This document shows positions 2,024 through 51,075 of a stretch of DNA of 64,000 bases, piece after piece; the stretch's first letter is position 1; the number at the start of each line of letters is the position of its first letter. This DNA comes from a bacterium. Its GTDB lineage: Bacteria; Hydrothermota; UBA3073; JACQXS01. The position numbers and the translations under genes were made by a program. The stretch covers positions 6,681 through 70,680 of the forward strand of contig JAUWHX010000093.1 in the NCBI GenBank assembly GCA_030605695.1. The letters run 5' to 3'. The notes under the pieces were generated by a model. It was not told the DNA's origin and searched no databases. It saw nothing but the letters and a program-made list of their open reading frames with translations.

Positions 2024-4045
2024 TTATTTTAAAAGCAGGAACTTTTTAGTGAGTAAAAGTTCATCTTCTGCCTTTCCAAAGGATTTTGCGAACAGTCTGC
2101 AAAAATATACTCCATCAGAAAAGTTCTTCGTATTCCATATAATCTCGTATTCCCCAACTTTTTTGATTCCTTTATCCAGTGTAGCTACTTCTTGCCCACA
2201 AATGTTATATATAGACAGTTCAACCTTTGCCGATTGTGGAATTGTGTAGTGAATATCAATTACTGAACGAGATAAACTTGGATGAATAGAAAGTGAAGAT
2301 TCCAGATATGGGACATCCTCATTCACTCCCGGCTTGTATGTCAAATAAACTGTATTATCAAATGAAAGACTGTCATTTTCACCAAAGACAGAAGAAAAAT
2401 AATATAGCCGAATTATATAAGTTCCAACATCCAAACCATAGGTTATAAACTTACAGAGTTCCCCATCATCTACGAGTGTTGGAATCCTATCTGTCAATGG
2501 AAAAAACTGTGTGGTATCTTCCACAGGAGCATATTCTATTCTATATCCTTCAAATTCAAAAGGCGAGTCAGGAGTTCTAACAATTGTCGCACTTCCCCAA
2601 ATAGAAAGAGTATCATCAATATATGCAGGAGACGGAGGATATAAACCTGTTACCATTACTGCGGCTGAATCATAAACCAAAATAGGATTGGCGAGGATGG
2701 TATTATATATCACTGATAGTGCTCTATCTCGTGCTATTAAATGTCCGAAAATGAAGTTAGTTAAAAGAAGTATCGATACAGAATGTCCCTCCATAAGTGC
2801 ATCAGTATAAAGAGAAGTGAAGAATGTGATTAAGAAAGATGAGCCTGTTGCTCCAATATGCCCACCAAAACCATCACAGGTGGTTTGCATAAGTGTAGTC
2901 TTGTTAGAATCAGCTGAGAGACACTCCCCAAAAATTGAACTCTTAAGAGTAAGGTTAGTTTCTCCATAAAAATACAAATTCCAAGCACGGATAGATGTAT
3001 TTACGAGTCGCAAGTTTCTTCCTGTAAATGGTGCTATCCAATCATCATAGTGAGAATCATCTACAAGTCCCGATATAGTGTCGGGAATAACAGTTCCCAA
3101 GCTGTCATATCTTGCTACTTCAAAGATATTGCCTGCACTTTGCAAATCAGCATCATATATAGTTATATCGGTACTATCCATTGCCATCGTTGCAAGTATA
3201 AGTCCATAAAGGGAATCTACTTTGATTGAATAGTTGATTCCTGTGCAGGTACTGTCAGGATAGGTAAATCGCTCAACCCATTCGTCCATACTTGGAGAGC
3301 CGTGTAGTTCGCCTGATGACCCTCTTGGGAAACCAAGCCAGATGAGTACAGTATCGGAGTGTGCAATATTGAGTTGTGCTGAATCACTCAGTATAACAAA
3401 CTCGCCTGCTTTATCAGAATGGCGAATATCAATTGAGCTGTTATTACCCAACATAACGAAAGTAACAAAAGCACCATCCATATCCACGCTATCCATCATA
3501 AAAGAACTACTGCCTATAACACCAGCGGAAGTCGGAAAATTAGCAGAATTAAAAGTAGAATTGGTTATCTCCATTGCGGCAGAATCCCAAAGCATAAATC
3601 CAAATTGATAGATGAAATCTTGCAGTATAATAAAATCAGTGTTCTCCACAGATACAAACGAATTATGATATGCGTATATATTACCTTTTAAGAAGAAAGA
3701 GCAATTCCGAATAATAAGCTGTGCATCATTTATTAAGACGATATTATCACAAATAGTAGTATCGTGTTCAATTATCACAGTTGAATCAATAACTATATCA
3801 TCTTTTGTAGATTTCAGTGTAGGGGCGGTTCGCGAACCGCCCCTATAAATAAACCCTATCTGCTCAATGATATTTGAAAGCTCATATGTAGGCATTCTAT
3901 CTGGTGAAAGCTTTTTCTCTGTTTTCGGTGGCTTTAGTCCGTAGGTACGTGGAATAAATCGGTTTATTTCTTGGCGAAGCAAATCCATCTGTCCTGCATT
4001 AGCAATCAACGGCAATAAAATTAAAAGTAACATTATTTTTTTCAT
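2024..4045 (-). CDS. T9SS cargo protein, parallel beta-helix-like, with intact C-terminal sorting domain
   Basis: Signal peptide, repetitive N/S/I-rich beta-helix-like segments, and a C-terminal ...VELSIYNICGQEVATL...GVYFCRLFAKSFGK...KKFLLLK sorting domain. An AGGTAAG-type RBS lies upstream. Confidence 0.65.
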   Translation of the reverse strand: MKKIMLLLILLPLIANAGQMDLLRQEINRFIPRTYGLKPPKTEKKLSPDRMPTYELSNIIEQIGFIYRGGSRTAPTLKSTKDDIVIDSTVIIEHDTTICDNIVLINDAQLIIRNCSFFLKGNIYAYHNSFVSVENTDFIILQDFIYQFGFMLWDSAAMEITNSTFNSANFPTSAGVIGSSSFMMDSVDMDGAFVTFVMLGNNSSIDIRHSDKAGEFVILSDSAQLNIAHSDTVLIWLGFPRGSSGELHGSPSMDEWVERFTYPDSTCTGINYSIKVDSLYGLILATMAMDSTDITIYDADLQSAGNIFEVARYDSLGTVIPDTISGLVDDSHYDDWIAPFTGRNLRLVNTSIRAWNLYFYGETNLTLKSSIFGECLSADSNKTTLMQTTCDGFGGHIGATGSSFLITFFTSLYTDALMEGHSVSILLLTNFIFGHLIARDRALSVIYNTILANPILVYDSAAVMVTGLYPPSPAYIDDTLSIWGSATIVRTPDSPFEFEGYRIEYAPVEDTTQFFPLTDRIPTLVDDGELCKFITYGLDVGTYIIRLYYFSSVFGENDSLSFDNTVYLTYKPGVNEDVPYLESSLSIHPSLSRSVIDIHYTIPQSAKVELSIYNICGQEVATLDKGIKKVGEYEIIWNTKNFSDGVYFCRLFAKSFGKAEDELLLTKKFLLLK

Positions 4046-5813: not shown

Positions 5814-6371
5814 CTACCAGGTTTGTAACTTTTTTTCTAAATTCTTAATCTTTTCTCTGAGTTCACCTATTCCATTTTCCAGATTAAGAAAAACTTTATC
5901 CGCACCTCCCAAAATTCCTGCCTCTTTATGCAAATTGTAAATGTCATCTTCAATAACTTCTATCTTGCTCTCCATTCCATTATCCCATTCTAAATATGGC
6001 TTAGGCCTTTGAGAGAAGAAATACCCTGCTATTACAAGAATTATCACTACTCCCACACCAACAAATGTTGGAGCGAAGCGGAAACCCCTGCCATAGCGGG
6101 GCAGGACGAAACTTTTGAAAATCTCAACAGATAAAGCTTTCAGTTGGAATTTCTTTCTCTTTGCTCTTTCTAATACTTCCTTTAAAATAGCAGGAGACGG
6201 TTCTTCTTCCGGTAGTTCCTTGTATAAATTCACAGTATCTTCTAATTCTTTAAATTTATGACGACAGACCTCACATCCCTTCAGATGTTTCTCAAACTCC
6301 TGAGTTTCTTGAGTCCCAAGTTCCTTATAAAAATATAACAACCCAAATTTTTCAAACTTATTACAACTCAC
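5814..6371 (-). CDS. Anti-sigma factor, zinc-finger (ZAS-like), single transmembrane helix
   Basis: HLKGCEVC(RH) motif near the N-terminus and a central hydrophobic helix. The gene overlaps the stop of the upstream ECF sigma gene (ATGA-type coupling). Confidence 0.7.
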   Translation of the reverse strand: MSCNKFEKFGLLYFYKELGTQETQEFEKHLKGCEVCRHKFKELEDTVNLYKELPEEEPSPAILKEVLERAKRKKFQLKALSVEIFKSFVLPRYGRGFRFAPTFVGVGVVIILVIAGYFFSQRPKPYLEWDNGMESKIEVIEDDIYNLHKEAGILGGADKVFLNLENGIGELREKIKNLEKKLQTW

Positions 6372-6898
6372 TTTCCCTCCTTTAAAACCCTGCGTAAACT
6401 AATAATAGCATTACGCATTCTCGCAAGCACTGTATTAAGCGGACAGTCAAGCATCTTGGAAATCTCCCTGAAATTAAGTCCTGTATGTTCTCTTAGTAGG
6501 AATATCTCTTTCTGTTTGGCAGGTAACTCCATCACTGCACTATTCAACAAAGAAAGAAGCTCTCTTTTCTCAATATCTTTTTCAACATTTCTGTAGGAAC
6601 GAGATTCAAGCGTGCCCTTAACCTGTAAATTCCGTTTATTTCTTCTCAAATAATCAATGCTTTTAGAATTAGCCAATTTGAATAATAAGCCCGAGAATTT
6701 ATTTTGCTCCTTATACTTTGGCAACAACTTGATAACTCGTATCCACACATCCTGAAAAATATCTTCAGCAACATCTTTACTCCTGACCATTCTTAAAATA
6801 TAATTAAAAAGAGGTAGTTTATATCGGGATAGAAGAACCTCAAATGCCCCCTCATTACCAGCTTTATAATTCTTGATAAGTTCTGCATCGCTCAACAT
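6368..6898 (-). CDS. ECF-family RNA polymerase sigma factor
   Basis: Sigma-70 region 2 (FEVLLSRYKLPLFNYILRMV..DVAEDIFQDVWIRV) and region 4 (LPAKQKEIFLLREHTGLNFREISKML) motifs. Paired with the downstream anti-sigma gene. Confidence 0.85.
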   Translation of the reverse strand: MLSDAELIKNYKAGNEGAFEVLLSRYKLPLFNYILRMVRSKDVAEDIFQDVWIRVIKLLPKYKEQNKFSGLLFKLANSKSIDYLRRNKRNLQVKGTLESRSYRNVEKDIEKRELLSLLNSAVMELPAKQKEIFLLREHTGLNFREISKMLDCPLNTVLARMRNAIISLRRVLKEGK

Positions 6899-6985
6899 CC
6901 TTTTATTTATAAACGTTTCTACTCCTGATTTATTGTATATCTTTTATATTAAACTGCAAACATTTTTCTTGACTTTCAAGGATAA

Positions 6986-8173
6986 TTGCTTATATTTTAT
7001 AATGTGATAGATAGAATTCAAATAGAACGAGAGGCAAGAGCTTATGTGGCTCGAGGAGAATGGGAAAAAGCAATCTCTCTTTATCGTGAACTCCTTGATA
7101 CAAAAGGTAAAGACCCAAATATCTACAATCTTATTGGAGATGTCTATGCAAGAATGGACGATTTAGCTGATGCTCTGCCCGAATATCTCACTGCAATTGA
7201 CCTTTATGAAAAAGAGGGACTATTTGAAAACGGAATAGCAGTTTGCAAAAAAGTAATAAGACTTAACCCTGAAACTGGAGAAGTTTACTTCAACTTAGCA
7301 CTCTTTTATGCTGAGATTGGCTTATTAAATGAGGCAAAAGATTCTTTAATGACATATCTCCGACTTTCTCCCGGCAAACGCAGGATAGAAAAGGACCCTC
7401 AAAGATACAAAAAACTAATGATGTTATTGGCATCCGATGAACGACTAAAACCAATTATTAAAGAGCTTTATACTAAAATAGGCAAAAAAGAAAATGAATT
7501 AGATGGAATATTTGGATTCCTGCCGCCAGAACCTGAAGAAAAACCTCCTGAAGCTGAAATTTCCCATCCAGAAATTAAACTTCAACCTACTGAAAAACCT
7601 TCCATCGAAAAACAAAAGTTACACGAAGAACCAAAATCTTTTACTGAATCACAAAAGCCAATTCCTAAATTAGAACCTGTAGTAGCAGAGACTAAACCTA
7701 CATCTCAATCTAAACCTGAACCATTTCCTCAACCTGTAGCGGTAGATGAAAAAGAAATGGAGATACTTCTACATGCAATAGATGAAATTAGTGCCCATAA
7801 TAGTTCAGAAGTCAAAAAAGAACATTATGAGCTTGGTATTAAATATAAAAATCTTGGATTTTATGATGCGGCTATCAGGGAATTTCAGCTATCTACAACT
7901 TCTAATTCACACAGGCTAAAAGCTCTCAAAGAACTTGGCTATTGTTTTTTAGAGAAAGCTGAACCAAAACTTGCTGCAAACGCTTTTGGAAGAGCAGTTG
8001 AAGAAGGAGGCAAAACATCGGAAGATTATATAGCACTTAAATATGGAACTGGAAAAGCCTATGAATTGATGAGAGACAAAGAAAATGCAATTATCTCATT
8101 TGAAGAAGTCTGCCTTCAAGATATTAACTATCAAGACGCCAAAAAACGCTTAAATCAATTGAAGAAAGAATAA
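6986..8173 (+). CDS. TPR-repeat protein with Pro/Glu/Lys-rich linker
   Basis: N-terminal and C-terminal TPR-like helices (YNLIGDVYARMDDLADALPEYLTAIDLYEK...; HYELGIKYKNLGFYDAAIREFQ) are separated by a PE/PK-rich low-complexity segment. The annotated start is TTG and an in-frame GTG at 7004 is possible. The stop directly abuts the next gene. Confidence 0.6.
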   Translation: MLIFYNVIDRIQIEREARAYVARGEWEKAISLYRELLDTKGKDPNIYNLIGDVYARMDDLADALPEYLTAIDLYEKEGLFENGIAVCKKVIRLNPETGEVYFNLALFYAEIGLLNEAKDSLMTYLRLSPGKRRIEKDPQRYKKLMMLLASDERLKPIIKELYTKIGKKENELDGIFGFLPPEPEEKPPEAEISHPEIKLQPTEKPSIEKQKLHEEPKSFTESQKPIPKLEPVVAETKPTSQSKPEPFPQPVAVDEKEMEILLHAIDEISAHNSSEVKKEHYELGIKYKNLGFYDAAIREFQLSTTSNSHRLKALKELGYCFLEKAEPKLAANAFGRAVEEGGKTSEDYIALKYGTGKAYELMRDKENAIISFEEVCLQDINYQDAKKRLNQLKKE

Positions 8174-9385
8174 ATGGATAATTCTTTTGTAGATACACTT
8201 CTTGAACTCGGAATCCTAACCAAACAACAACTTGAAACCGCTATAACCTATCAATGGGAAAATGGTGGCAAATTAGAAGAAAGTTTAATAAAACTTGACT
8301 ATTTCAATGAAGATACTCTTCTTTTTCTTTTAGAACGTAAATTTGGCTATTACCCTCTTAAGTTAAGTGAAGTAAGAATGGCCCCAGAAGCAACAAAACT
8401 TATTCCCTCTTGGCTTGTAAGACGTTTTCTTATCGTCCCCTTAAGACAATCAAACACAAGTCTTGCTTGTGTAATGATGAACCCTTTGGATAAAGAGGCA
8501 ATGTCCCAACTCAAAAAAGCAGTTTATTATGACATATTATCTTTCATTGCAAAAAAAAGTGATATTGAACAATTTATCTCTGAAAACTATGGGCAAAAGA
8601 TACCAGAAGAAGCAATGGCAGTTCAATCTGAAAGACCAAAATCTGAAATACCAGCTCTTCTTGAAAAATATACTTTTCAGAACTTTGTTACAGGAAAATG
8701 CAATGACCTTGCTTACTCAGTTGCTTTTTCCACTGCCAGAGGTTATTCTGAAGAAACAAATCCGCTGGTGATATATTCTGATGTCGGAATGGGCAAAACT
8801 CATCTTTTGGTTGCTATATGGAATTACATACTTGAACATAGACAACAAAGACAGATTTTTTTCACATCTTCTGAAAAATTTGTAAATGCTCTAAAAGAAG
8901 CATTAGAAACACACAAGTTGACCGAGTTTAAAGAACAATATGATAAAATAGATGTCTTGCTCATAGATGATATTGGACTTATAGCAGGAGATGAAGTAGC
9001 ACAACAACATTTCTTTCATATATTTAATGACCTTCACCAAAATTCTAAACAAATAATAGTTACTTCTGACCGTCCTCCGAAAGAATTTCCAACTCTTTCT
9101 GACCGCCTTAAATCAAGATTTGAAGGAGGACTTATAGCAAAAATAGACCCTCCTGACCTTGAAACACGAACTGCTATCCTGAAGTCTAAAGCAAAAGACC
9201 TAAATATACTTGATGAGCTTATCTCTTTAATTGCTCGTGAGGTAAGTGGCAATGTAAGAGAACTTGAAGGAGTTTTAAAAGAAGTTATCGCATATAAAAA
9301 ATATAAAAAAGAAAAGTTGACAAAAGAAACAGTAGAAGATATACTAATTAGAAGGTCAGTTATTAAGCCATACACTAATGGATAA
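8174..9385 (+). CDS. Fusion protein: GspE/PilB N-terminal (N1E / MshEN-like) domain plus DnaA-family AAA+ ATPase domain, with no DnaA DNA-binding domain
   Basis: Residues about 1-140 match the type II secretion ATPase N-terminal fold: (L/V)xxLGILTKQQLETAITYQ and LVRRFLIVPL....LACVMMNPLDKEAMSQLKKA. Residues about 165-400 carry DnaA domain-III signatures: NPLVIYSDVGMGKTHLL, DVLLIDDIGLIAGDEVAQQHFFHIFNDL, QIIVTSDRPPKE, LSDRLKSRFEGGLIAKIDPPDLETRTAILKSKA. The protein ends without a domain-IV HTH. Confidence 0.8.
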   Translation: MDNSFVDTLLELGILTKQQLETAITYQWENGGKLEESLIKLDYFNEDTLLFLLERKFGYYPLKLSEVRMAPEATKLIPSWLVRRFLIVPLRQSNTSLACVMMNPLDKEAMSQLKKAVYYDILSFIAKKSDIEQFISENYGQKIPEEAMAVQSERPKSEIPALLEKYTFQNFVTGKCNDLAYSVAFSTARGYSEETNPLVIYSDVGMGKTHLLVAIWNYILEHRQQRQIFFTSSEKFVNALKEALETHKLTEFKEQYDKIDVLLIDDIGLIAGDEVAQQHFFHIFNDLHQNSKQIIVTSDRPPKEFPTLSDRLKSRFEGGLIAKIDPPDLETRTAILKSKAKDLNILDELISLIAREVSGNVRELEGVLKEVIAYKKYKKEKLTKETVEDILIRRSVIKPYTNG

Positions 9386-11021
9386 GTCAAAATTAATTGA
9401 GTATTTTAGAAAAATGAATAAGTCAAAGTTAATTGAGTATTTGAAAAAGCCTTTAACTGGTGAACAGAAAGCATTAGGATTAGATATAGGAACTCGTCAT
9501 ATAAAGCTTGCCCAGATAAAGAAAATCCCAGGAGGTTATTTGCTTGAAAAATATGGAATAATAGAATTACCCCCAGAAGCAATCGTTGACAGAGAAATCA
9601 TGGACAGAGAAGTTCTCATTGAAAGTCTGAGAAAAATAATAGAAGATAACGGAGTTGAGGAAAAAAAGGTATCTACTGTTATATCTGGGAAAAATGTTAT
9701 TATTAAAAAACTTCTTGCTAAATCCCCCAAAAAACGAGAAGAGAAAAAAGTGTTTGAATCTCTTGCAAAAGAAAATATCCCATTTGACCTTAAAGAAGTT
9801 GTAATAGACTTCAAAAAGTTAAGAGAAAAAGACGAGGACATCGAGCTTGTTCTTGTTGGAGCAAAAAATGAAGTCCTTTATCCTTTAATAGATGTTTTGA
9901 AAGAAGCATCTCTTTTGCCTTGTAATATTGACATACCACCTTTTATTCTTAAATCCGCTTACCAAAAATATATACCTGAGGAAGGCACTTGCCTTTTAGT
10001 AAACATTGGGTTTGAACATGTATTAATAATGGCTGTCCGAGATGGAAATTATCTATTTGATGACGAAATTCCTATGGGAGTCCGCACTTTTATTGAAGAA
10101 ATTCAAAGAATATGCGGAATCGGAGCTAAGGAAGCAACCGCAGTGCTTCAGGGAGAAGAAGTTCAGGATGTAAAAGAAAAAGATATTGAGCGAGCAAAAA
10201 ACACTACAATTAAAAGGTTGTTATCCAGAATAGAGAGATTGTTACCAGAAATCTCCGAATGGAAACTTATCATTTTAGGTGGTGGTGGAGCAGGTATTCC
10301 AGGAATTCAAGAAACTTTCGCAGAAAAATTTAATACAAGTTGCGAAATCGGAAACCCTTTAAAAGAAATAGAATGTGGAGAAACTCCCCCAGATTACCCA
10401 CATCAACTTGATATTGCAATCGGATTAGCCATATCAAAACTTGAGAATACAGGAGTCAATCTCTTGCCACTTGAAGAGAGAGTAGAAGAAAAAAACAAAA
10501 TTCTCCAGGCACTTGACCAAGGGCTCCCTTTTTATAGTTTTATTGGAAGTGTTTTTATCCTCTCACTTATAGTATTTGGGATAACGAAAAAACAGCATAG
10601 AATTGAGAAAGAAATTGAGGATATGAAAACTCAACAAGAAGCACTTATACCTAAAGTAAATGAAGCTCGTGAACTAATGGGAAAAGAAAAGGAAGTAAGA
10701 ACCAAAGTGAAAGTTATACAAGATTTATCTATGCATAAGTATACGAGGGTTAAATTATTGGATGAAATAAATCACCTACTTCCTGAATATACCTGGCTTG
10801 TAACTTTAAATGAGGAGTTAGCAGATTCAATTGGAGGTATTGGTATCTTACTTCGTGGAATTACAACTTCAAACTTTGCAGTATCTGAGTTCATGCGTCG
10901 CCTTGAAGATTCAAACTATTTTACTGAGGTTGAACTAAGCTATACAAAAAGAGGCGAGATTTCTGAAACTGAAACAACAGAATTTGAAATAAAATCAAGA
11001 TTCGAAGAATTCAAAAAGTAA
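9378..11021 (+). CDS. pilMN: PilM-PilN fusion (type IV pilus assembly inner-membrane platform)
   Basis: N-terminal actin-like PilM motifs (LGLDIGTRHIKLAQI...; ...ILGGGGAGIPGIQE). After residue about 375 there is one transmembrane helix followed by a PilN-like periplasmic region. The start overlaps the upstream stop by 8 nt. The 5' end carries a 33-bp tandem duplication (MDKSKLIEYFRK / MNKSKLIEYLKK). Confidence 0.75.
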   Translation: MDKSKLIEYFRKMNKSKLIEYLKKPLTGEQKALGLDIGTRHIKLAQIKKIPGGYLLEKYGIIELPPEAIVDREIMDREVLIESLRKIIEDNGVEEKKVSTVISGKNVIIKKLLAKSPKKREEKKVFESLAKENIPFDLKEVVIDFKKLREKDEDIELVLVGAKNEVLYPLIDVLKEASLLPCNIDIPPFILKSAYQKYIPEEGTCLLVNIGFEHVLIMAVRDGNYLFDDEIPMGVRTFIEEIQRICGIGAKEATAVLQGEEVQDVKEKDIERAKNTTIKRLLSRIERLLPEISEWKLIILGGGGAGIPGIQETFAEKFNTSCEIGNPLKEIECGETPPDYPHQLDIAIGLAISKLENTGVNLLPLEERVEEKNKILQALDQGLPFYSFIGSVFILSLIVFGITKKQHRIEKEIEDMKTQQEALIPKVNEARELMGKEKEVRTKVKVIQDLSMHKYTRVKLLDEINHLLPEYTWLVTLNEELADSIGGIGILLRGITTSNFAVSEFMRRLEDSNYFTEVELSYTKRGEISETETTEFEIKSRFEEFKK

Positions 11022-11054
11022 GATGGTATTTGTAGCATTTTAAAAGGAGGAGAA

Positions 11055-11582
11055 ATGAAGTATGCCAAATTTTCTGTTTCCTGCATTCTGTTTTCTATAT
11101 TCTTTATGGGGTGTAATGAGAAACAACCATTAGATGACCCGGACAATGCAATAGTATCAGGGTATGTATACAAACGCGCAACACCAACTGACTCTGTAAT
11201 TGATACAATCATAAGAGACACCGCGGGTATCCCAATAGAAACATTGTGGACATATATAGACTGGACATTTTCTGACCCTGCCGAAAGTGTCCAAGTTTGG
11301 ATAGAATCGGATATTACATCTCCACTTCCTTATGCTGGTCCGGATATAGATGGCTATAGCGATTCAACCGGATTTTACAGCATTCCAATATATCTGGGGC
11401 ATACAGCAGTGAAAGCTTGCGGAGGAGATATAGTCGGATATGAATATACTTACTTTGCGGATGCCAGAGTCTTTGTGTTATATAAGGGTTTCATCTATGA
11501 CTTCGGTGGTGGCATAACTCTTGGCAGAGGAAGAGAATTTAGATTATTTCCTATATCTATTAGCTGGGTAAGACCACAATAA
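11055..11582 (+). CDS. Lipoprotein of unknown function inside the pilus-assembly operon
   Basis: Signal peptide with lipobox (FFMGC). AGGAGG RBS upstream. Confidence 0.5.
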   Translation: MKYAKFSVSCILFSIFFMGCNEKQPLDDPDNAIVSGYVYKRATPTDSVIDTIIRDTAGIPIETLWTYIDWTFSDPAESVQVWIESDITSPLPYAGPDIDGYSDSTGFYSIPIYLGHTAVKACGGDIVGYEYTYFADARVFVLYKGFIYDFGGGITLGRGREFRLFPISISWVRPQ

Positions 11583-11610
11583 ATGGAGTAACACAATAAA
11601 AGGAAATTAA

Positions 11611-12141
11611 ATGACAAGACCTCGCAGAATTTTAGTCTCGTGTTTGATTGTTATTCTTGTTTTCTTGGGCTTTTATAACTTCTTAATTAGACCGAAAATT
11701 AATCAAATACGTCTCCTCAACAAAAAACATGAGGATACAGCAAAAGTACTCAACAGTTCCTTTGAATATATAAAGAAGTATACGGATGTAAAGATGGCGT
11801 TTGAACATATCTCACATCAATGGAAAATACTTGAAAAATGTCTTCCAGATGAAGAAGAAATGCCCAACCTTCTTCGCTCTATGTCTGATGCAGGAAAGAG
11901 AAGTAATGTTAAGTCTATTCTTTTCAGACCACTTGCTAAAATTCCAAAGGATTTTTATCAAGAAAACCCTATCCAGGTAAAGACAACTTCTGGATACCAC
12001 GAAATTGGAACATTCTTGTCAATGATATCTGAACTGCCAAGACTTGTAAATGTAAGCAACCTTATGCTTGTATCATCAGAAAGTACGGAAAGAACATTAA
12101 AAGCAGAATTTATCGCTACGGCATATACAACAAAAAAATGA
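11611..12141 (+). CDS. pilO: PilO-like pilus assembly protein
   Basis: N-terminal transmembrane helix, coiled-coil, and a PilO-like C-terminal domain (...TSGYHEIGTFLSMISELPRLVNVSNLMLVS..). The stop codon TGA overlaps an ATG at 12138. Confidence 0.6.
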   Translation: MTRPRRILVSCLIVILVFLGFYNFLIRPKINQIRLLNKKHEDTAKVLNSSFEYIKKYTDVKMAFEHISHQWKILEKCLPDEEEMPNLLRSMSDAGKRSNVKSILFRPLAKIPKDFYQENPIQVKTTSGYHEIGTFLSMISELPRLVNVSNLMLVSSESTERTLKAEFIATAYTTKK

Positions 12142-12160
12142 ATACAGCAAAACTTAATTT

Positions 12161-12195
12161 CTCTTGTCTCTTGTCTCTTGTCTCTTGTCTCCTGT
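12161..12195. repeat. (CTCTTGT)4 + CTCCTGT heptanucleotide tract in the leader of the PilP-like gene
   Basis: Direct reading gives ctcttgt ctcttgt ctcttgt ctcttgt ctcctgt. It lies between the ATGA-coupled ATG at 12138 and the body of the downstream ORF. Confidence 0.85.
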
Positions 12196-12952
12196 CTATG
12201 GAGCAGAAGTAACCAGAATAAAGATTAAAAAAGTAGGTGAGTGTGTAAAAGTAATTGTATCTACTGACGCATCGCAATATAAAGATACAGTGCTTCACAA
12301 TCCTCAGAGAATAGTAATAGACTTTAAAAAATCATTTTCTCGTTTGCCAAAAGAGATAACTTCTTCATACCTTCCACTCTTAAAAATCAGAACCTCTCAA
12401 TATACAATAAATCCACCTACCACAAGAGTAGTGCTTGACCTTAAGAACAAAATCACTCATTCAATCTCTCTAATTAAAGGAGGATTAGAAATTAATCTTG
12501 GCAAAAAGATTCAGCCATCCCAAAAAGAATTGCCCATAAAACCCAAAGTAGAATCAAAAAAGGAACCAAAAGTAAAACCAACCAAAAAACCAAAAGTCAA
12601 ATTAACAGAGGAAATCAAAAAAACATCTGAACTACCTTCAGGACCAGAAGCTTTCTTCTATAATCCAAGAGGAAAGCGTGACCCATTTAGACCCTATCTG
12701 GGTGCCGATGTAAAGGATACTCTCCTTGATATAGGAACTGCAGCAATTGTTGGAATAATGTGGAGCCCCAAGGAAAAATATGCATTGGCACAGGACTCTC
12801 GAAATAGAGCATATATACTTCAGGAAGGAGACCATGTAAGCGGTGGAAAGGTCCTTCATATAAAAAAGAAAGAAGTGATTTTTCTTATGCGTGTTTTTGG
12901 AGGAAGAAAAAAAGTGATTTTGAAAGTAACACCAAAAAAGGAGGAAAAGTGA
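12164..12952 (+). CDS. AMIN-domain + PilP-like protein (secretin-associated); annotated from a TTG start
   Basis: AMIN-like segment (VTRIKIKKVGECVKVIVSTDAS...PQRIVIDFKKSF..), a Lys/Pro-rich linker, and a C-terminal PilP-like beta domain (..YALAQDSRNRAYILQEGDHVSGGKVLHIKKKEVIFL..). The upstream ATG at 12138 is out of frame by the heptamer tract. Confidence 0.55.
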   Translation: MSLVSCLLSPVYGAEVTRIKIKKVGECVKVIVSTDASQYKDTVLHNPQRIVIDFKKSFSRLPKEITSSYLPLLKIRTSQYTINPPTTRVVLDLKNKITHSISLIKGGLEINLGKKIQPSQKELPIKPKVESKKEPKVKPTKKPKVKLTEEIKKTSELPSGPEAFFYNPRGKRDPFRPYLGADVKDTLLDIGTAAIVGIMWSPKEKYALAQDSRNRAYILQEGDHVSGGKVLHIKKKEVIFLMRVFGGRKKVILKVTPKKEEK

Positions 12953-14151
12953 GAAAGTTCTTTATATTTTTAATTGTTTTTACACTAATTGTTCCTTCCA
13001 TTATGGGAGTTCAGAGAAACCGATTAATTTCTCTATCTTTCGAAAATGCAGATATACACACAGTCCTGCGTACATTTGCAAAACTTGGAGGTGTAAATGT
13101 TGTTGCATCTGAAGAAGTAACAGGAAAGGTTACATTACAACTTAAGTCAGTTCCCTGGGAACAAGCTTTCCAGACACTCCTACGAGTTCATGGCCTTACT
13201 TCAGTTGAAGAAAAAGGAATAATTGGAGTTATGACGATGGAGGAAAGCGAGAAACAAAAGCGAATTATCCCTCTTGAAACACGAATCTTTAGAATAAAAT
13301 ATGCAAAAGCAAAAAAACTTGAAACTACTATCTCCAGTATGCTTACAGAACGAGGCAAAATAAAAACCAATGAACGTACATCTTCACTAATTATTACAGA
13401 CATCCCAGACCTCCTTGATGAAATAGAAACTCTTATAGACATAATTGATACTCCAACTGCTCAGGTTATGATTGAGGCAAAAATAGTTGAAATAGATTAC
13501 AAAGCCGGGCGTGAACTTGGGATTGATTGGTGGGCTGGAGATGAAGAAAACCCCGCAAAAGATACATATTATGGAGGTGGAGTAAAAACCCCTATAGCTG
13601 AAAAAGGAAAATTTGTTTTTGGAACACTTCTTGATGGAATTAAAATAGAAGCTAAGCTTTCAATGCTTGAATCCCAAGATAAAGCTAATATACTCTCCCA
13701 ACCAAAAATTGCAGTTATGGATAATGAAGAAGCAATGGTCCTATCAGGAAAAAAGATTCCAATTATTACTCTTGACCGTGCAGGAAATAAAATTATAAAA
13801 TTTTATGATGTAGCTTTAAAACTCACTGTTACACCACATATAAACCCAGAAAATCAAGTTATGCTGGAGATTAATCCAGTAATTTCTGACCTTTCCTCTG
13901 AAGCTACTGTGGATGGTGGAATTATTATCCTCACAAGCGAAGTGCAAACTATCTTAATGGTAAATGATGGCCAAACTGCTGTAATTGCCGGTGTGATAAA
14001 AGAAAAAGAAAGCAAGGTCATCCGCGGAGTTCCGATATTATCAAAAATTCCTCTCATAGGAAGACTTTTTAAGTCAGTCTCTAAATCAAAAGATAAAACA
14101 GAACTTATGGTCTTCGTTACCCCGCATATCATCCCTATGGAAAAGAAATAA
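12949..14151 (+). CDS. pilQ: PilQ-type secretin, compact, with no AMIN domains of its own
   Basis: Signal peptide; secretin N-domain (LSFENADIHTVLRTFAKLGGVNVVASEEVTGKVTLQLKSVPWEQAF); C-terminal secretin domain (GVPILSKIPLIGRLFK...ELMVFVTPHII). Overlaps the upstream stop by 4 nt. Confidence 0.75.
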   Translation: MRKFFIFLIVFTLIVPSIMGVQRNRLISLSFENADIHTVLRTFAKLGGVNVVASEEVTGKVTLQLKSVPWEQAFQTLLRVHGLTSVEEKGIIGVMTMEESEKQKRIIPLETRIFRIKYAKAKKLETTISSMLTERGKIKTNERTSSLIITDIPDLLDEIETLIDIIDTPTAQVMIEAKIVEIDYKAGRELGIDWWAGDEENPAKDTYYGGGVKTPIAEKGKFVFGTLLDGIKIEAKLSMLESQDKANILSQPKIAVMDNEEAMVLSGKKIPIITLDRAGNKIIKFYDVALKLTVTPHINPENQVMLEINPVISDLSSEATVDGGIIILTSEVQTILMVNDGQTAVIAGVIKEKESKVIRGVPILSKIPLIGRLFKSVSKSKDKTELMVFVTPHIIPMEKK

Positions 14152-16290: not shown

Positions 16291-17559
16291 TTGATTTCGT
16301 GTTTCAAGGTTTTAATGAGGAAGCATGCCATGTTAAATTATAATAAACTACATAAGGTTTTGTTTTGTAAAGCGAAGGCATGGTTTATCATTATAGGAAT
16401 AATAGCTATACCTGAGGTTTTGAGAGCTGATTTAGATGTATTTATGGGTTGCAAATGTTGGTTAAATACAGGCACTCCAGGAGTATGGGAGAGGAAAATG
16501 GCATGGGATATTGGTCCTTACCCGGATAGTGTCTATGTCCACTCAAGTTTCTGCGACTTGGATAATGATGGAGATTATGATGCTTATGTTACTAGAGATG
16601 TCTCCCTTATAACCGCATTTGAGAATGTAGGATCTGATACAGCCCCGAATTGGCAAAGGAAACCTTCATGGGATTTCAACCCCTCTGATATGGGTTTAGT
16701 ATTTTGGGCTGATTTTATAGATATAGATGATGATGGTAAATGTGACCTAAGTGTTGCCGAGCATGATACTATTAAGTTTTATAAAAACACAGGGACAAGT
16801 CTTTTTGTATGGACAAGAGAATCTGCATGGGATATATATGTTGACGGGTGCAATCTCGGACATTCTTATGCTGATTTAGATAATGATGGAGATTATGATT
16901 TCATGGCAAGACTTTGGTTTGCACGTAAAATTAAGGCTTTTGAAAATATTGGCTCTATCACTAATCCAGTCTGGCAGGAGAAGCCGGTATGGGCTCCCAA
17001 TCCTGAGCCAGACCTCCTATCATTAGGTGACTTAGATGGAGATACGGATGTAGATATAATAGGGGGAGGAATATCATGGGCAACTTCTTTTGAAAATACA
17101 GGAACTATAACTAACCCTGTATGGACAGAAAGGTCTGGATGGTGCACTCCTGATGCACATAGACCCTTCTACCCAGAATTAATAGATATAGACTCAGATG
17201 GACCATCAGGGGTAGAAGAAAAGCATTTTGCGCCACATCAGAGATTTATTACTATTTATCCGAATCCTTTCACTCAAAAAACCGTTATTCGTGTTCGGTT
17301 TTCGTGTTTAGACCATCACGAACCACCAACACGAATCACGATTTATGATTTAGCAGGCAGATTGGTTAAATCTTTTCCCCATACGGGTCTTGAGACAATT
17401 CACAATTCATCCATAGGATCCGATGGACGATTTGCGATTCACAAAGTAACCTGGGACGGAACCGATAATAATGGAAAGAAAGTAAAGAGTGGCATTTACT
17501 TCTGCAAATTCCAAGCAAACAATTATACAGTAACAAAAAAACTATCTTTAATAAAGTAG
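16291..17559 (+). CDS. FG-GAP/VCBS-repeat T9SS cargo protein
   Basis: Repeated DLDNDGDYD / DIDDDGKCD / DLDGDTDVD calcium-binding-type repeats. C-terminal domain: IYPNPFTQKTVIRVRF..ITIYDLAGRLVKSF...WDGTDNNGKKVKSGIYFCKF..KKLSLIK. Confidence 0.65.
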   Translation: MISCFKVLMRKHAMLNYNKLHKVLFCKAKAWFIIIGIIAIPEVLRADLDVFMGCKCWLNTGTPGVWERKMAWDIGPYPDSVYVHSSFCDLDNDGDYDAYVTRDVSLITAFENVGSDTAPNWQRKPSWDFNPSDMGLVFWADFIDIDDDGKCDLSVAEHDTIKFYKNTGTSLFVWTRESAWDIYVDGCNLGHSYADLDNDGDYDFMARLWFARKIKAFENIGSITNPVWQEKPVWAPNPEPDLLSLGDLDGDTDVDIIGGGISWATSFENTGTITNPVWTERSGWCTPDAHRPFYPELIDIDSDGPSGVEEKHFAPHQRFITIYPNPFTQKTVIRVRFSCLDHHEPPTRITIYDLAGRLVKSFPHTGLETIHNSSIGSDGRFAIHKVTWDGTDNNGKKVKSGIYFCKFQANNYTVTKKLSLIK

Positions 17560-29446: not shown

Positions 29447-30463
29447 CTATCTCATTAAAATTATTTTCTTTGTTGCCTTGAAATTACTTGCTTCCACTCT
29501 CACAAAGTAGATACCTTTACTAAGCTTCTCAAGATTTATCTCAACATCCTGCTTCGTTGTTAAAACATGCTTTACTAACTTGCCTGATAGGTCATAAATC
29601 TTGATACTTGCTCCCTTGCTCGCTTGTTGAGGCAAAGCCGAAATCCCGATTTGTCGGGGATAGCTCGATAGCTTGATAACTGCCTTCCCAAACGATGGGT
29701 TCGGATATATCTCTAAACTAATGCCTATTGCCTTATGCCTATTGCCTGTCTCTTCCTCTACTCCTGTCTCAGAAACCCTTATAAGATAGACATCTTTCTT
29801 GCCAGCACCAAAAGAATATGTCCCTCCTGCAATTATAAAGCCACCACTTGCATACTCCTGAACAGAATAGCCACAATCCCAGGCAGTTCCTCCATAAGTT
29901 CTTGTCCACAGAGTATCACCATTTGCATTTGTCCTTATAAGATAGACATCATCAGAGCCAGCACCAAAAGACTTTGTATATCCTGCGATTATAAAGCCCC
30001 CGCCTGCACACTCCTGAACAGAAGAGCCACCATCAGAGTTAGTTCCGCCATAAGTTTTAGTCCACAGAGTATCTCCATCTGCGTTCGTTCTTATAAGATA
30101 GACATCATCAGAGCCAGCACCAAAAGACTCTGTATATCCTGCGATTATAAAACCCCTATCCGTACACTCTTGAACAGAATTGCCATCATCCCAGTAAGTT
30201 CCGCCATAAGTTTTAGTCCATAGAGTATCACCATTTGGCTCTATCCTTATAAGATAGACATCACTTCTGCTAGCACCAAAAGAAAATGTACATCCTGCAA
30301 TTATAAAGCCACTACCTGCACACTTCTGAACAGAACAGCCATGATCGTACTCGGTTCCGCCATAAGTTCTTGTCCACAGGGTATCAGGACCATCGGCAAT
30401 TGCAGGTGCGGACACAATAAATTGTGTCCCTACAAAAGCCCATACTCTCAAAAACTTACGCAT
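29447..30463 (-). CDS. T9SS cargo with about-45-aa tandem repeats ([11 protein letters not shown]...FIIAGYT.SFGAG.DDVYLIRT, x5)
   Basis: Signal peptide, five near-identical repeats, and an intact C-terminal sorting domain. Compared with its paralog at 63517, the sorting domain carries an extra YPRQIGISALPQQ encoded by the palindrome tcccgatttgtcggga (29649-29664). Confidence 0.7.
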   Translation of the reverse strand: MRKFLRVWAFVGTQFIVSAPAIADGPDTLWTRTYGGTEYDHGCSVQKCAGSGFIIAGCTFSFGASRSDVYLIRIEPNGDTLWTKTYGGTYWDDGNSVQECTDRGFIIAGYTESFGAGSDDVYLIRTNADGDTLWTKTYGGTNSDGGSSVQECAGGGFIIAGYTKSFGAGSDDVYLIRTNANGDTLWTRTYGGTAWDCGYSVQEYASGGFIIAGGTYSFGAGKKDVYLIRVSETGVEEETGNRHKAIGISLEIYPNPSFGKAVIKLSSYPRQIGISALPQQASKGASIKIYDLSGKLVKHVLTTKQDVEINLEKLSKGIYFVRVEASNFKATKKIILMR

Positions 30464-30636: not shown

Positions 30637-32112
30637 TTATCTCATTAAAACTATTTTCTTTGTCGCCTTGAAATCACCTACATCCACTCTCACAAAGTAA
30701 ATACCTTTAGTAAGTTCCTCAAGATTTATTTCAACATCGTGATTCATTGTTAAAATAGTCTTTACTAACTTGCCTGATATATCGTAAATCGTTAATCGCA
30801 AATCGTTAATCGTGTAATCGTCCCGATTTTCGTTTAACGAATAACGAATAACGATTTTTTTGCTACATGGATTCGGAAAAACTCTTAACTCTAAACTCTT
30901 AACTTTTAACTCTTCACTCTCCTCCACATTTGTATTCTCACATTTATGACGCTTGTAATATATCTCCGAGTTGCTAGCCCCATGCCGCCAATCCGTCCAA
31001 GCTATATGAACATCATAATCATAATCGCAATTCCAACATGCTACAGAAACGCGTTCAGACTTGCCGACAGAATTGGTTAACATCTCATCGGTTCCCCAAG
31101 TCTCACCATCATTGACTGACCGATTGTAATATATCTCATAGTCGCTATCCCGCTCATCTACCCAAACTACATGAACTGCTGAATCACAAACTGCTATAGA
31201 AGGATCCCCTGAGTAAGCAGAGTTAGTAGTTAATCTCCTATTATCTATCCCCCAAGTCTCTCCATTATCAACTGACCGATTGTAATATATTTCATAGTTG
31301 CTATCACGCCAATCATACCAAACTATATGGACTATTGAATCACAAACTGCTATAGAAGAACACCCTGAGTAAGCAGAGTTATCGGTTAGTCTCTTATTAT
31401 CTATCCCCCAAGTCTCTCCATTATCAACTGACCGATTGTAATATATCTCATAGTTGCCAGCACGCTCATCTATCCAAACTATATGGACTATTGAATCACA
31501 AACTGCTACCGAAGGATACCCTGCGGGAGCAGGGTCATTAGTTAGGCTCTTATCTATCCCCCAAGTTTCTCCATTATCAACTGACCGATTGTAATATATA
31601 TCAGCGTCGCCATCACGAAAATCATACCAAACTATATGAACTATTGAATCACAAACTGCTACCGAAGGACAAGATGAGTCAGCAGGGTCATCAGTTATCC
31701 TCTCATCTATCCCCCAAGTCCCACCATTATCAACTGACCGATTGTAATATATCTCCGTGTTGCCATCACGGTTATCATACCAAACTATATGAACCATCGA
31801 ATCACAAACTGCTACCGAAGGAAAATGAGAATCCCCTGTAGTTAGCCGTGTATCCGGGTCAAAGCTACTCCCAGAATTGATAGACCTTATATAATAAAGC
31901 TCGCCTGGATTATCACCCAATCTGTGCTCCCAAAAAATATGCACCATAGTATCCCGTACTGCTATTGCCCAAGCATTATTGTAGCCATCATAGTCAACAT
32001 GGCTTGGATAAACAGTTAATCTTTTATCTGGATTCTCCCACTGCCCATACAAATCCACAGGATTCTGCGAACTGCAAGCTCCCAACACCATCAAAAATCC
32101 CCATTTCTTCAT
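30637..32112 (-). CDS. BNR/Asp-box repeat T9SS cargo protein
   Basis: Repeated SVDNGETWG / SVNDGETWG Asp-box motifs (x6); C-terminal domain ..LRVFPNPCSKKIVIRYSL...[14 protein letters not shown]...GIYFVRVDVGDFKATKKIVLMR. Confidence 0.75.
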   Translation of the reverse strand: MKKWGFLMVLGACSSQNPVDLYGQWENPDKRLTVYPSHVDYDGYNNAWAIAVRDTMVHIFWEHRLGDNPGELYYIRSINSGSSFDPDTRLTTGDSHFPSVAVCDSMVHIVWYDNRDGNTEIYYNRSVDNGGTWGIDERITDDPADSSCPSVAVCDSIVHIVWYDFRDGDADIYYNRSVDNGETWGIDKSLTNDPAPAGYPSVAVCDSIVHIVWIDERAGNYEIYYNRSVDNGETWGIDNKRLTDNSAYSGCSSIAVCDSIVHIVWYDWRDSNYEIYYNRSVDNGETWGIDNRRLTTNSAYSGDPSIAVCDSAVHVVWVDERDSDYEIYYNRSVNDGETWGTDEMLTNSVGKSERVSVACWNCDYDYDVHIAWTDWRHGASNSEIYYKRHKCENTNVEESEELKVKSLELRVFPNPCSKKIVIRYSLNENRDDYTINDLRLTIYDISGKLVKTILTMNHDVEINLEELTKGIYFVRVDVGDFKATKKIVLMR

Positions 32113-32249: not shown

Positions 32250-33269
32250 TTACCTTCGCAATCTCCTTAACCCTATCCCATAGACCACGCCTATTATCTG
32301 GAAATCGTCCTCAGAGGTAACTACTATTGGAGAATATTTGGAATTCTTGGACTTTAGAATTACATTATCCTTTCGTCTTGTAAATTCCTTTGTCATCGCT
32401 TCATTATTTAACCTACATACTACTATATCTCCTTTTTCTGCCTTTGTCTGCGCCTCAACTATCGCATAATCACCTGACAACAGTTCAGGACTCATAGAAT
32501 CCCCCTCAACTTGCACCCCAAATACTTCCTTGTCTTTTTTTATTAAAGCACCCTCAGGAACCCATACCCAGTCAATTACCTCATCCCCTCTTATCTCTAT
32601 TGGATGTCCGGCTGGAATACTTGCAATCACAGGAACTTTTGGCTTGAGTCTAATGAGGTCTAAAACCACTACCTCTTCTTTATCAGGAACTCTCCTTATC
32701 TTAAATTCACTCTCAATGAACTTCTCCAAAGCTTCAAGTTTCCGCTCAAGTTTCTTTATTCTCTCTTCCTCTGGAACTGCATCCTCTGGAATCCCACGCT
32801 TCCCAAAGACAAGAAAGTCAAAACTCACTCCAGCAATCTCAGCAAATTTAGATAAAATCTCCTGCTGAGGCTGAAGATCTCCTCTCTCATATCCTAAAAC
32901 CTGTGCTTCCTGAACTCCAAGTTTCTTGGCAAGCTCTCCACGCGATAACTTTAAGCCACTCTCTCTCAAATATTCAATCCTCTCCCCTATTGCCTTCAAA
33001 TCCATATGCTCAAATACTTTTCTTGAATAATTGCCGGGTGCTCTGCCTTTTCCATCCAATACCCAATCAATTGAACACTCGCCAAGCTCAGCTATCCTCA
33101 CTAATAACTTTCCCTTCGGAACTCTCCCTCTATCCCACATTGATACAGTATCTTGCGATACTCCAAGTAACCCACCAAACTTCTCACCAGTCAATCCCAA
33201 TATCCTTTTCCTTATGTAAGTTAACCTTCCTGAACACTTTGACAAATCTATTTCGTCATACTTTCCCAT
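32250..33269 (-). CDS. LexA-like repressor: two XRE-type HTH domains + coiled-coil linker + S24 (LexA/UmuD) self-cleaving peptidase domain
   Basis: HTH1 (LTGEKFGGLLGVSQDTVSMWDRG), HTH2 (LSRGELAKKLGVQEAQVLGYERG), and a C-terminal GDSMSPELLSGDYAIVE...K catalytic Ser/Lys dyad. Confidence 0.7.
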   Translation of the reverse strand: MGKYDEIDLSKCSGRLTYIRKRILGLTGEKFGGLLGVSQDTVSMWDRGRVPKGKLLVRIAELGECSIDWVLDGKGRAPGNYSRKVFEHMDLKAIGERIEYLRESGLKLSRGELAKKLGVQEAQVLGYERGDLQPQQEILSKFAEIAGVSFDFLVFGKRGIPEDAVPEEERIKKLERKLEALEKFIESEFKIRRVPDKEEVVVLDLIRLKPKVPVIASIPAGHPIEIRGDEVIDWVWVPEGALIKKDKEVFGVQVEGDSMSPELLSGDYAIVEAQTKAEKGDIVVCRLNNEAMTKEFTRRKDNVILKSKNSKYSPIVVTSEDDFQIIGVVYGIGLRRLRR

Positions 33270-46823: not shown

Positions 46824-47963
46824 ATGATGAGTATATTTTTACTTTTGTTTGGAGTTTTGTGGAATGAGAAAAAGCAAGTAGATACTTTATTGCCGGAACT
46901 TGCCTGGCCCTATTATATATTTGAATCCACTGAGATTGAGGGATATAAAGTAATGATGTTTGAGCCCTCTATGCCCTGTTCTGTGCGTCAATTTATGTGT
47001 GGAGTAGGTTCTATGGCAGATGATGCAAGCAAGGAATGTGAATTATTTGTGTGGAGTGATGCTGGCGGGGAACCTGGATTGTTATTGTTTAATGAAAGTA
47101 TTACTATTAGTGCAACTGATTCTGGCAAGGTTTACTTTTACTGGCATAAATTGAGTTCGCCGGTATCGGTAGTGGGACCGTTTTGGATTGGAGTTAAGGA
47201 ACAAGGGTGTTTATTTCCCACTATAGTTTTTGATGAACTTCAAAAAACATCGGGCAAGTCTATTCATAGTAAAGATGGGACAGATTGGCAAACTTTTGAT
47301 GGGGATTATTTTTATGGTGTAGTGATTGATTATGGAGGAGAAGCTGAGATTTATGTAGAGCCGGATTCACTTGAGTTACTTATGAAAGAAGGTCAAGTTG
47401 ATTCTGAAGTAATATGGGTTTATAATAAGTCGCCTTCCTGTGATTTATCAGTAGATAGTGTTTGCTGGAGCAAGAATTGGATTTTATCTGTGAATCCCGA
47501 AGCTTTTTTATTAGCACCCGGCAGTTCAAAGCGTGTGGATGTAGTTGTTGAAGGTTCAGGAGTTGGGGAATACAATGATACTCTCTGGATTTTTTCAAAT
47601 GACCCCGATAAGAGTATATATCCTGTGCCAGTGCTGCTTTCGGTTGTCGGAGTAGAGGAGGGTTTAGGGTTCAGGGTTCAGGGTTTAGAGTTGAGAGTTT
47701 TTCCGAATCCAGCTTTGGGAGTAGCAAGTATCAGATTTCAGATGCCAGATGCCAGATGCCAGAACTCCGGCAGGAGACATCTAACATCTAACATCTCATT
47801 AAAAATTTATGATGTTGCAGGGAAATTAGTGAATGTACTTTTTGAAGGAGAAAAGGAGTGGGGGGTTCATACTTTATCGGTTAAGCTCACAGGTGGTGTT
47901 TATTTTGTGAAACTCAAAGCAAATGGTCAGGAAATAATCAAAAAACTTATAATAATAAGATGA
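46824..47963 (+). CDS. T9SS cargo protein of unknown function
   Basis: Intact C-terminal domain (..LRVFPNPALGVASIRFQ...ISLKIYDVAGKLVNVLF...GGVYFVKLKANGQEIIKKLIIIR). The linker before it is encoded by GGTTYAG and CAGATGC heptamer tracts (47661-47766). Confidence 0.65.
   Translation: MMSIFLLLFGVLWNEKKQVDTLLPELAWPYYIFESTEIEGYKVMMFEPSMPCSVRQFMCGVGSMADDASKECELFVWSDAGGEPGLLLFNESITISATDSGKVYFYWHKLSSPVSVVGPFWIGVKEQGCLFPTIVFDELQKTSGKSIHSKDGTDWQTFDGDYFYGVVIDYGGEAEIYVEPDSLELLMKEGQVDSEVIWVYNKSPSCDLSVDSVCWSKNWILSVNPEAFLLAPGSSKRVDVVVEGSGVGEYNDTLWIFSNDPDKSIYPVPVLLSVVGVEEGLGFRVQGLELRVFPNPALGVASIRFQMPDARCQNSGRRHLTSNISLKIYDVAGKLVNVLFEGEKEWGVHTLSVKLTGGVYFVKLKANGQEIIKKLIIIR

Positions 47964-48957: not shown

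Positions 48958-51075
<2,118 letters not shown>

Follow-up and report, generated by a model that had tools for sequence, protein, structure and literature searches.

A type IV pilus gene cluster encodes a predicted DnaA-derived accessory ATPase with a PilB-type N-terminal domain

Why should an ATPase module of the replication initiator DnaA be encoded among the genes of a type IV pilus (T4P)? The question arises from a 64,000-nucleotide stretch of bacterial DNA (contig JAUWHX010000093.1, positions 6,681 to 70,680), here called the window. An open reading frame (ORF) on its plus strand, at 8174..9385, begins with ATG and encodes a protein of 403 amino acids in which an N-terminal domain of the MshEN/PilB type (residues 1-141) is joined by a linker (residues 142-163) to domain III of DnaA (residues 164-397). 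This fusion gene is the second in a tightly packed block of seven that runs from a tetratricopeptide repeat (TPR) gene to pilQ (7004-14151). Sequence and gene order establish what the two domains are, that the residues for catalysis and the arginine finger are intact, that a flexible linker joins the halves, that the gene is coupled to its operon, and that the T4P/TPR neighborhood is conserved. We propose that the fusion is an accessory, regulatory ATP-switch component of the T4P machine and not a replication protein, and put the probability of this reading at about one half.

Profile searches recognized both halves of the protein. Pfam placed MshEN at residues 57-142 (48.7 bits, E 8e-13; cutoff 23.1, PF05157) and Bac_DnaA at residues 164-322 (185 bits, E 1e-54). 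The Pfam search of the fusion returned no match to the T2SSE motor domain (PF00437) or to DnaA domains I and IV (DnaA_N, PF11638; Bac_DnaA_C, PF08299); domain II is absent, and the lid forms the C-terminal end of the protein. The NCBIfam PilB model TIGR02538 aligned to residues 7-150 through its N terminus only (model positions 4-147 of 564). The DnaA model TIGR00362 covered positions 79-335 of 437 and scored 294.4 bits, below its cutoff of 343.9, and two Hda models also remained under their cutoffs (TIGR03420, 87.1 versus 194.8; PRK08084, 53.5 versus 268). An initial annotation of the window had described the N-terminal half as that of a type II secretion or T4P ATPase, the C-terminal half as DnaA domain III, and the whole as neither a DnaA initiator nor a canonical Hda, and these searches bear it out.

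Structure prediction gave the same division. An AlphaFold2 model built on 17 relatives (mean predicted local distance difference test score, pLDDT, of 75.8) contained a well-predicted N-domain, then a disordered linker, then an AAA+ module with its lid. Using Foldseek against the Protein Data Bank (PDB), we matched the C-terminal half to domain III of B. subtilis DnaA (8bv3; E 4e-19, 47% identity, TM 0.78) and the N-terminal half to the N-domain of V. cholerae MshE (VcMshE) with c-di-GMP (5htl; E 2e-7, TM 0.78), as well as to the GSPII domains of Thermus PilF. A sequence search of the PDB agreed on each half and found no solved structure that contains both. On the plus strand, the N-domain divides into a four-helix MshEN_N subdomain (8183..8341; residues 4-56, with the register set by phmmer against 5htl) and an alpha/beta MshEN_C subdomain of the T2SSE_N/GspE-N1 type (8342..8596; residues 57-141, pLDDT 83-92, matched by Foldseek to 5htl and PilF), which is presumed to be the docking module. 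The linker (8597..8662) has pLDDT values <50 and is poorly conserved, with a mean identity of 0.19 in the window's clade versus 0.49-0.66 for the two domains. The AAA+ module with its lid occupies 8663..9364.

An alignment of the 17 relatives located the catalytic motifs of the AAA+ module: Walker A (G205-T209; 8786-8800), Walker B (D265/D266; 8966-8971), sensor I (D299/R300; 9068-9073), the box VII arginines R311/R315 within RLKSRFEGGL (9104-9118), and sensor II, R362 within GNVRELEG (9257-9259), all on the plus strand. The ETRTAIL stretch, which the initial annotation had taken for sensor 2, instead opens the lid subdomain.

The fusion gene is joined to its neighbors at both ends. The TAA of the TPR gene ends at 8173 and the ATG of the fusion begins at 8174; downstream, the pilMN gene starts with an ATG at 9378 and so shares its first 8 nt with the end of the fusion gene, stop codon included. 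Both junctions had been seen in the initial annotation. The TPR gene (7004..8173, plus strand) encodes a cytoplasmic protein with TPR blocks recognized by Pfam at its N and C termini, a middle rich in Pro, Glu, and Lys, and no signal peptide. Its likely start is the GTG at 7004, from the alignment with the homolog in locus L005; the mechanical ORF begins at the TTG at 6986. The N terminus of the TPR protein matched the NCBIfam model for SgmX weakly (68.8 bits, far under the cutoff). The pilMN gene (9378..11021, plus strand) encodes a 547-residue PilM-PilN fusion (Pfam PilM_2 and PilN; TIGR01175, 141.7 bits, above the cutoff of 133). This single-protein architecture is like that of GspL. PilM-PilN fusions of 530-580 residues are present in all WOR-3-type relatives, and the window protein has a weak match to the Amuc_1101 PilM-like family (107 bits versus a cutoff of 650).

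The architecture is not confined to this genome. Our first homology search recovered 23 clusters of proteins of approximately 400 residues with identical architecture and 34-84% identity. Against 1.84 billion representatives we then ran a profile built from the N-terminal half and the junction, scoring matches with local hidden Markov models for each half. Among the top 150 representatives, this search added 35 clusters at 50% identity, with linkers of 30 to approximately 690 residues and including two giants of 1876 and 1990 residues that each carry two DnaA modules. A search seeded with a 750-residue member revealed that long-linker fusions are common in Candidatus Hydrogenedentes (at least 120 clusters). 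In all, the fusion architecture was collected in 182 proteins from candidate division WOR-3 (the lineage of the window), Candidatus Hydrogenedentes, and unclassified lineages. A scan of a genome collection with the junction alignment also matches ordinary dnaA; the true fusions among the matches listed were those in L005, L006, and L007. We set aside L049, which is a plain dnaA-dnaN locus, and L036, which has no ORF, and the species count is a lower bound.

Some metagenomic sequences depart from this plan. One pilus cluster (L091, 2681-13179) contains four paralogs in a row: a 921-residue protein with MshEN and two DnaA domain III modules, a 421-residue protein with MshEN only, a 246-residue protein with DnaA domain III only, and the 1876-residue giant, in which MshEN and one DnaA domain III are separated from a second DnaA domain III by approximately 1200 residues with no assignment. 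These paralogs are natural split and tandem forms. Five other metagenomic proteins (P0018, P0019, P0021, P0026, and P0072; 640-678 residues) consist of two tandem DnaA domain III modules and have no MshEN domain, a further non-canonical arrangement of DnaA domain III.

We examined the genes around the fusion at 16 distinct loci. T4P core genes directly adjoin it at 15 of them, an association far too consistent to be due to chance, and the synteny with pilus platform genes that the initial annotation wished to see outside the source genome is conserved. The WOR-3-type loci (the window, L003/4, L005, L006, and L093-L097) share the order (PilD)-TPR-fusion-PilMN-x-PilO-PilP-PilQ, and in L003 and L093 PilB-PilT-PilC lies just upstream. 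A divergent clade (L087/88) has TPR-PilT-fusion-REC-HK-PilMN...PilQ, and an MSHA-like clade (L001, L007) has secretin-AAA_22-TPR-PilB-PilC-PilT-x-fusion-TPR. The Hydrogenedentes loci L085/86 read fusion-PilB-PilT-PilS/R; L092 reads GGDEF-PilT-fusion-PilB-PilB-PilC-PilS-PilR-pilin; and in L091 several MshEN and DnaA domain III paralogs stand between PilD and PilB. The TPR partner also recurs, with colinear homologs adjoining the fusion in L005 (54% identity), L003 (39%), L087 (24%, E 2e-28), and L001 (24%, E 1e-13). At none of the 16 loci did we find dnaA, dnaN, or ori-type neighbors. Since normal PilB, PilT, and PilC are encoded in relatives' clusters (L003, L093, L001, L092, and L085), the fusion is not a replacement motor, as the initial annotation had considered.

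The sole locus lacking pilus core genes, L002 (7068-12366), has genes for an AAA_22 protein, a Roadblock/MglB-like protein, a Ras-like GTPase, and two PATAN (PatA_N) proteins around its fusion, which is 495 residues long with a C-terminal extension. This neighborhood resembles a polarity or motility-switch set. In other bacteria, relatives of MglB-like, Ras-like GTPase, and PATAN proteins act as regulators of T4P polarity. The gene directly upstream of the fusion in the MSHA-like clade encodes a conserved 380-residue protein that has membrane helices at its N terminus and matched no Pfam family (L001, 8831-9973; L007, 8702-9850; 73% identity).

How close is the AAA+ module to that of DnaA? We aligned 270 domain III sequences to E. 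coli DnaA numbering and found the equivalents of K178/T179, D235/D236, D269, R281/R285, and R334 invariant in fusion clades A-E and G. As in DnaA, the module is a full AAA+ domain with lid, with intact motifs for ATP binding and hydrolysis, Walker A and B, sensor I, box VII arginines, a trans-acting arginine finger, sensor II, and the two-helix insertion of the initiator type. It is 41-49% identical to genuine DnaA (Bacillaceae, 47-49%; WOR-3, 41-46%), 37-46% identical to the modules of other fusion clades, and 22% identical to Hda. Unlike DnaA, the fusion has neither domains I and II nor the DNA-binding domain IV, and is encoded in a pilus operon rather than with dnaA-dnaN. The residues of the initiator-specific motif with which DnaA contacts single-stranded DNA (ssDNA) are also altered. 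Position 211 was I or V in 90 of 90 canonical DnaA sequences and position 243 was K in 89 of 90; the window protein has K241 in place of E. coli V211 and D273 in place of E. coli K243, and its clade (clade A) has K, R, or E at 211 and D or N at 243 and has lost R227 of AID-1.

Ordinary three-domain DnaA, including domain IV, is encoded elsewhere in WOR-3 metagenome-assembled genomes (MAGs; L013, L015). Because these MAGs carry it, the fusion is a DnaA paralog and not the initiator, and we rejected the idea that it is the true DnaA of a reduced genome. Hda and HdaA are likewise DnaA domain III proteins with no domains I and IV and with a retained arginine finger. However, the Walker A and B motifs, intact in the fusion, are degenerate in Hda, and in place of a clamp-binding motif the fusion begins with MshEN: the window protein contains no β-clamp-binding motif of the QL[SP]LPL type, whereas E. 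coli Hda begins LNTPAQLSLPL. In a neighbor-joining tree with no support values, most fusions clustered together next to canonical DnaA, and Hda formed a remote outgroup. We did not adopt a single origin of all fusions, as the tree had neither bootstrap nor maximum-likelihood support and identities between fusion clades were no higher than those to canonical DnaA.

The N-domain shares with MshE, PilB, and Thermus PilF the two-subdomain fold (TM 0.78 to 5htl; 80 bits to PilF by sequence) and the operon context, and differs from them in being followed by an AAA+ module instead of the RecA-type T2SSE motor. The initial annotation had raised a response to c-di-GMP. The c-di-GMP motif of MshEN consists of two 24-residue RLGxx(L)(V/I)xxG...LxxxLxxQ units with 5 residues between them, and the VcMshE mutants G11L and G40I bind c-di-GMP poorly, if at all (PMC5013675). 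The fusion follows the register of VcMshE with an offset of 5 (phmmer against 5htl) and keeps the 24+5+24 geometry (motif 1, S4-Q27; spacer, W28-G32; motif 2, K33-K56). Its RLG triplets are degenerate (S4-F5-V6 and K33-L34-E35), with V6 and E35 at the equivalents of G11 and G40; across the window's clade these positions are V/I/L and E. Neither the strict nor the relaxed motif pattern matched the window protein, and the NCBIfam motif model NF053729 scored 34.4, below its cutoff of 38. The fusion of the window's clade is probably not a c-di-GMP sensor, and for the window protein this proposal is not supported.

Other clades may differ. Neither form of the motif is present in 158 of the 182 fusions, and RLG-type motifs are kept in the giants and in some Hydrogenedentes members; relatives with such motifs include P0147, P0157, P0226, and P0230. 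Judged by their sequences, fusions with near-canonical motifs may take c-di-GMP input. In L092 (5521-9365), the second gene upstream of the fusion encodes a GAF-GGDEF diguanylate cyclase, the intervening gene being that of PilT, and the fusion retains the relaxed motif; given this locus, some clades may indeed respond to c-di-GMP. The N-domain of the window's clade has a conserved signature of its own, QWExGG-xLEE. The signature recurs in L093, where the second gene upstream of the fusion (7005-7436) encodes an MshEN protein of 143 residues that stands alone; in L093 and L097, such proteins of approximately 145 residues are flanked by two TPR genes. The WOR-3 PilB proteins (L003, 3494-5074; L093, 877-2433) begin at MshEN_C and are missing the four-helix c-di-GMP-binding subdomain.

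How might an accessory ATP switch of this kind work? At the base of the machine, PilB, GspE, and MshE each bear an MshEN module, and GspE-N1 binds the actin-like cytoplasmic domain of GspL. From the gene arrangement, the fusion would be co-expressed with its cytoplasmic TPR partner and PilMN, and probably translationally coupled to them. By homology, its MshEN domain would tether it to the PilM platform, because MshEN_C is homologous to GspE-N1 and PilMN has the GspL-like fused architecture, or else to PilB. The flexible linker would join this tether to the initiator-clade AAA+ module, which is predicted to bind ATP, to self-assemble head-to-tail like DnaA, and to be reset by hydrolysis, so acting as an ATP switch or timer. 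More speculatively, the ATP-state-dependent multimer would act with the TPR protein to license, position, or gate the assembly of the pilus or the exchange of its motors, possibly by controlling the access of PilB and PilT to the platform.

Several points weigh against this proposal. The 64-kb window contains no pilB, pilT, or pilC, and likewise no pilin gene or dnaA. Docking on PilM, by analogy with GspE-N1 and GspL, is plausible, yet in Hydrogenedentes the fusion adjoins pilB and pilT, not pilM, and may have a different partner there. Clades B, C, and G keep the ssDNA-contact residues of DnaA (hydrophobic 211, basic 243), which suggests that they may have a nucleic-acid role. The AAA+ module is as close to genuine DnaA as to the other fusion clades, which leaves room for an interaction with DnaA. 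Finally, all members of the family come from uncultured organisms.

We weighed several other explanations against an accessory ATP switch. The fusion could couple the pilus to replication, as a tethered DnaA paralog that co-assembles with DnaA-ATP and, like Hda, stimulates hydrolysis or sequesters DnaA, thereby linking pilus or surface status to the initiation of chromosome replication. The high identity of the module to real DnaA, that of WOR-3 included, and the invariance of R311/R315 and sensor II fit this idea, and Hda is an established precedent for a DnaA regulator that consists of domain III only. Nevertheless, the window protein has no clamp-binding motif and scores 87 versus 194.8 with the Hda model, its clade has lost both AID-1 (R227) and the positions for ssDNA contact, and T4P genes are constant at the 16 loci whereas replication-gene neighbors are absent. 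Nothing specific in these features appears to favor the DnaA regulator that the initial annotation had suggested, and we consider such coupling unlikely. A loader for the pilus motors, in which the PilB-like N-domain co-assembles with PilB or PilT hexamers for their ATP-dependent loading or exchange on the PilC/PilM platform, is likewise improbable. Among AAA+ proteins of the initiator clade, DnaC and IstB act on partner complexes by loading or remodeling them. The fusion belongs to this DnaA/DnaC/IstB clade and, like DnaC, DnaI, and IstB, follows the logic of an adaptor N-domain on an ATP-dependent, spiral-forming module; its N-domain is nearest to those of PilF and PilB, and it directly adjoins pilB or pilT in L085, L087, L092, and L091. 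However, matches to DnaC, DnaI, and IstB in the PDB reached 24-30 bits versus 230 for DnaA, the partner-binding domains differ, and in the window's clade the neighbor is pilMN and not a motor gene. The argument is one of pure analogy, and we know of no T4P system that needs a loader.

A c-di-GMP receptor-effector, with the MshEN domain binding the nucleotide and switching the AAA+ module, as in MshE, seems quite improbable. The retained fold and register, the RLG-type motifs in four members, and the GGDEF gene near the L092 fusion are consistent with it, but the replaced glycines, the subthreshold NF053729 score, and the many fusions with no motif argue against it. Still less probable is a DNA-uptake factor whose DnaA-type module binds incoming ssDNA at a competence-type pilus. 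DnaA domain III binds ssDNA (Foldseek matched 3r8f and 8btg), PilQ of the window resembles HofQ, and clades B, C, and G have the residues for such contacts; the window protein has K241 and D273 instead, with an acidic residue at 243 common in its clade, and we saw no comEC, dprA, or comEA beside the fusion at any locus. An artefact of assembly or annotation, a decaying gene fusion, or a helper ATPase of the IS21 type has a negligible probability. A weak IstB_IS21 match (53 bits) is set against 185 bits for Bac_DnaA and the lack of an adjacent transposase, and we rejected the helper; 182 proteins from independent assemblies share the architecture, with both domains under conservation. For the window protein, each of the first four readings loses either its defining set of residues or its contextual support, whereas the conservation data refute only the artefact or IS21 helper.

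A bolder form of the accessory-switch proposal is that an initiator-clade AAA+ module was recruited into the T4P machines of several uncultured phyla, where PilB-type-tethered spiral oligomers would load or gate motors on the PilM platform, or would co-assemble with DnaA to couple pilus activity to replication initiation. We hold this to be rather unlikely. If true, motor loading or gating by DnaA-type spirals, or coupling of the pilus to replication, would be a mechanism unprecedented in pilus biology.

Few bacterial machines have been studied as thoroughly as type IV pili, and the list of their cytoplasmic parts (PilB/T/U, PilC, and PilM) is regarded as all but complete. An additional conserved ATPase, derived from DnaA and with a TPR protein as its dedicated partner, would be a regulatory component of a new kind and a rare instance of the reuse of DnaA domain III outside replication. 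The nearest functional analogs are SgmX-MglA of Myxococcus, FimX-PilZ-PilB, and TadZ, which also place nucleotide-switch and/or TPR proteins on the cytoplasmic face of the pilus. The TPR partner is weakly like the N terminus of SgmX, and one relative lies beside MglA/MglB-like genes. Unlike the fusion, these systems have neither a DnaA-type AAA+ module nor the MshEN-DnaA combination, so the analogy is functional only. Full-text searches across 8 million papers, aimed at the pairing of the two domains and at links between pili and DnaA in the WOR-3 and Hydrogenedentes phyla, returned nothing relevant and no description of the combination, in line with the initial annotation. The locus thus appears to be a T4P cluster with a previously undescribed DnaA-derived accessory ATPase, known in databases by automatic names only.

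Those names are "ATP-binding protein," "DnaA/Hda family protein," and, mistakenly and for many of the proteins in JGI annotation, "chromosomal replication initiator protein DnaA"; the 90%-identity cluster of the window protein includes a member annotated "ATP-binding protein [candidate division WOR-3 bacterium]." The last of the three labels can mislead calls of origins and of dnaA in WOR-3 and Hydrogenedentes MAGs. The natural variants of the family, which differ in whether they have c-di-GMP motifs or ssDNA-contact residues and include split, tandem, and giant forms, make the hypotheses testable in vitro.

The remaining genes of the block follow pilMN on the plus strand. First is a gene (11055..11582) for a conserved 175-residue protein with a lipoprotein-like N terminus (…FFMGC), which had no Pfam or NCBIfam match. 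It has homologs at the equivalent position in L003 (49% identity) and L087 (31%) and may be an undescribed component of the pilus cluster. Next are genes for PilO (11611..12141; Pfam PilO, E 5e-28), an AMIN-domain, PilP-like protein (12164..12952; Pfam AMIN and a weak PilP match), and the PilQ secretin (12949..14151; TIGR02515, 297.4 bits, above the cutoff of 284, and Pfam Secretin), for which HofQ was a further NCBIfam match. Upstream of the operon and divergent from it, on the minus strand at 5814-6898, are genes for an ECF sigma factor and a zf-HC2 anti-sigma factor, a pair that could regulate the operon. A candidate sigma-70-like site (TTGACT-16-TATATT, 6969-6996) lies upstream of the TPR start; a scan of the operon for promoters and terminators gave site counts no higher than in shuffled sequence.

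Elsewhere in the window are housekeeping genes and numerous genes for proteins with sorting domains of type IX secretion. The C-terminal sorting domain Por_Secre_tail is present in at least eight of these proteins (1-888, 2024-4045, 16291-17559, 29447-30463, 30637-32112, 46824-47963, 48958-51075, and 56734-58179), which is consistent with a host of the FCB group/WOR-3. Two of the sorting-domain proteins, at 48958-51075 and 52395-54644, are large beta-propellers with LVIVD repeats. On the minus strand, 32250-33269 encodes a LexA/CI-like protein that combines two helix-turn-helix domains with an S24 peptidase, an unusual double-helix-turn-helix architecture for a repressor.

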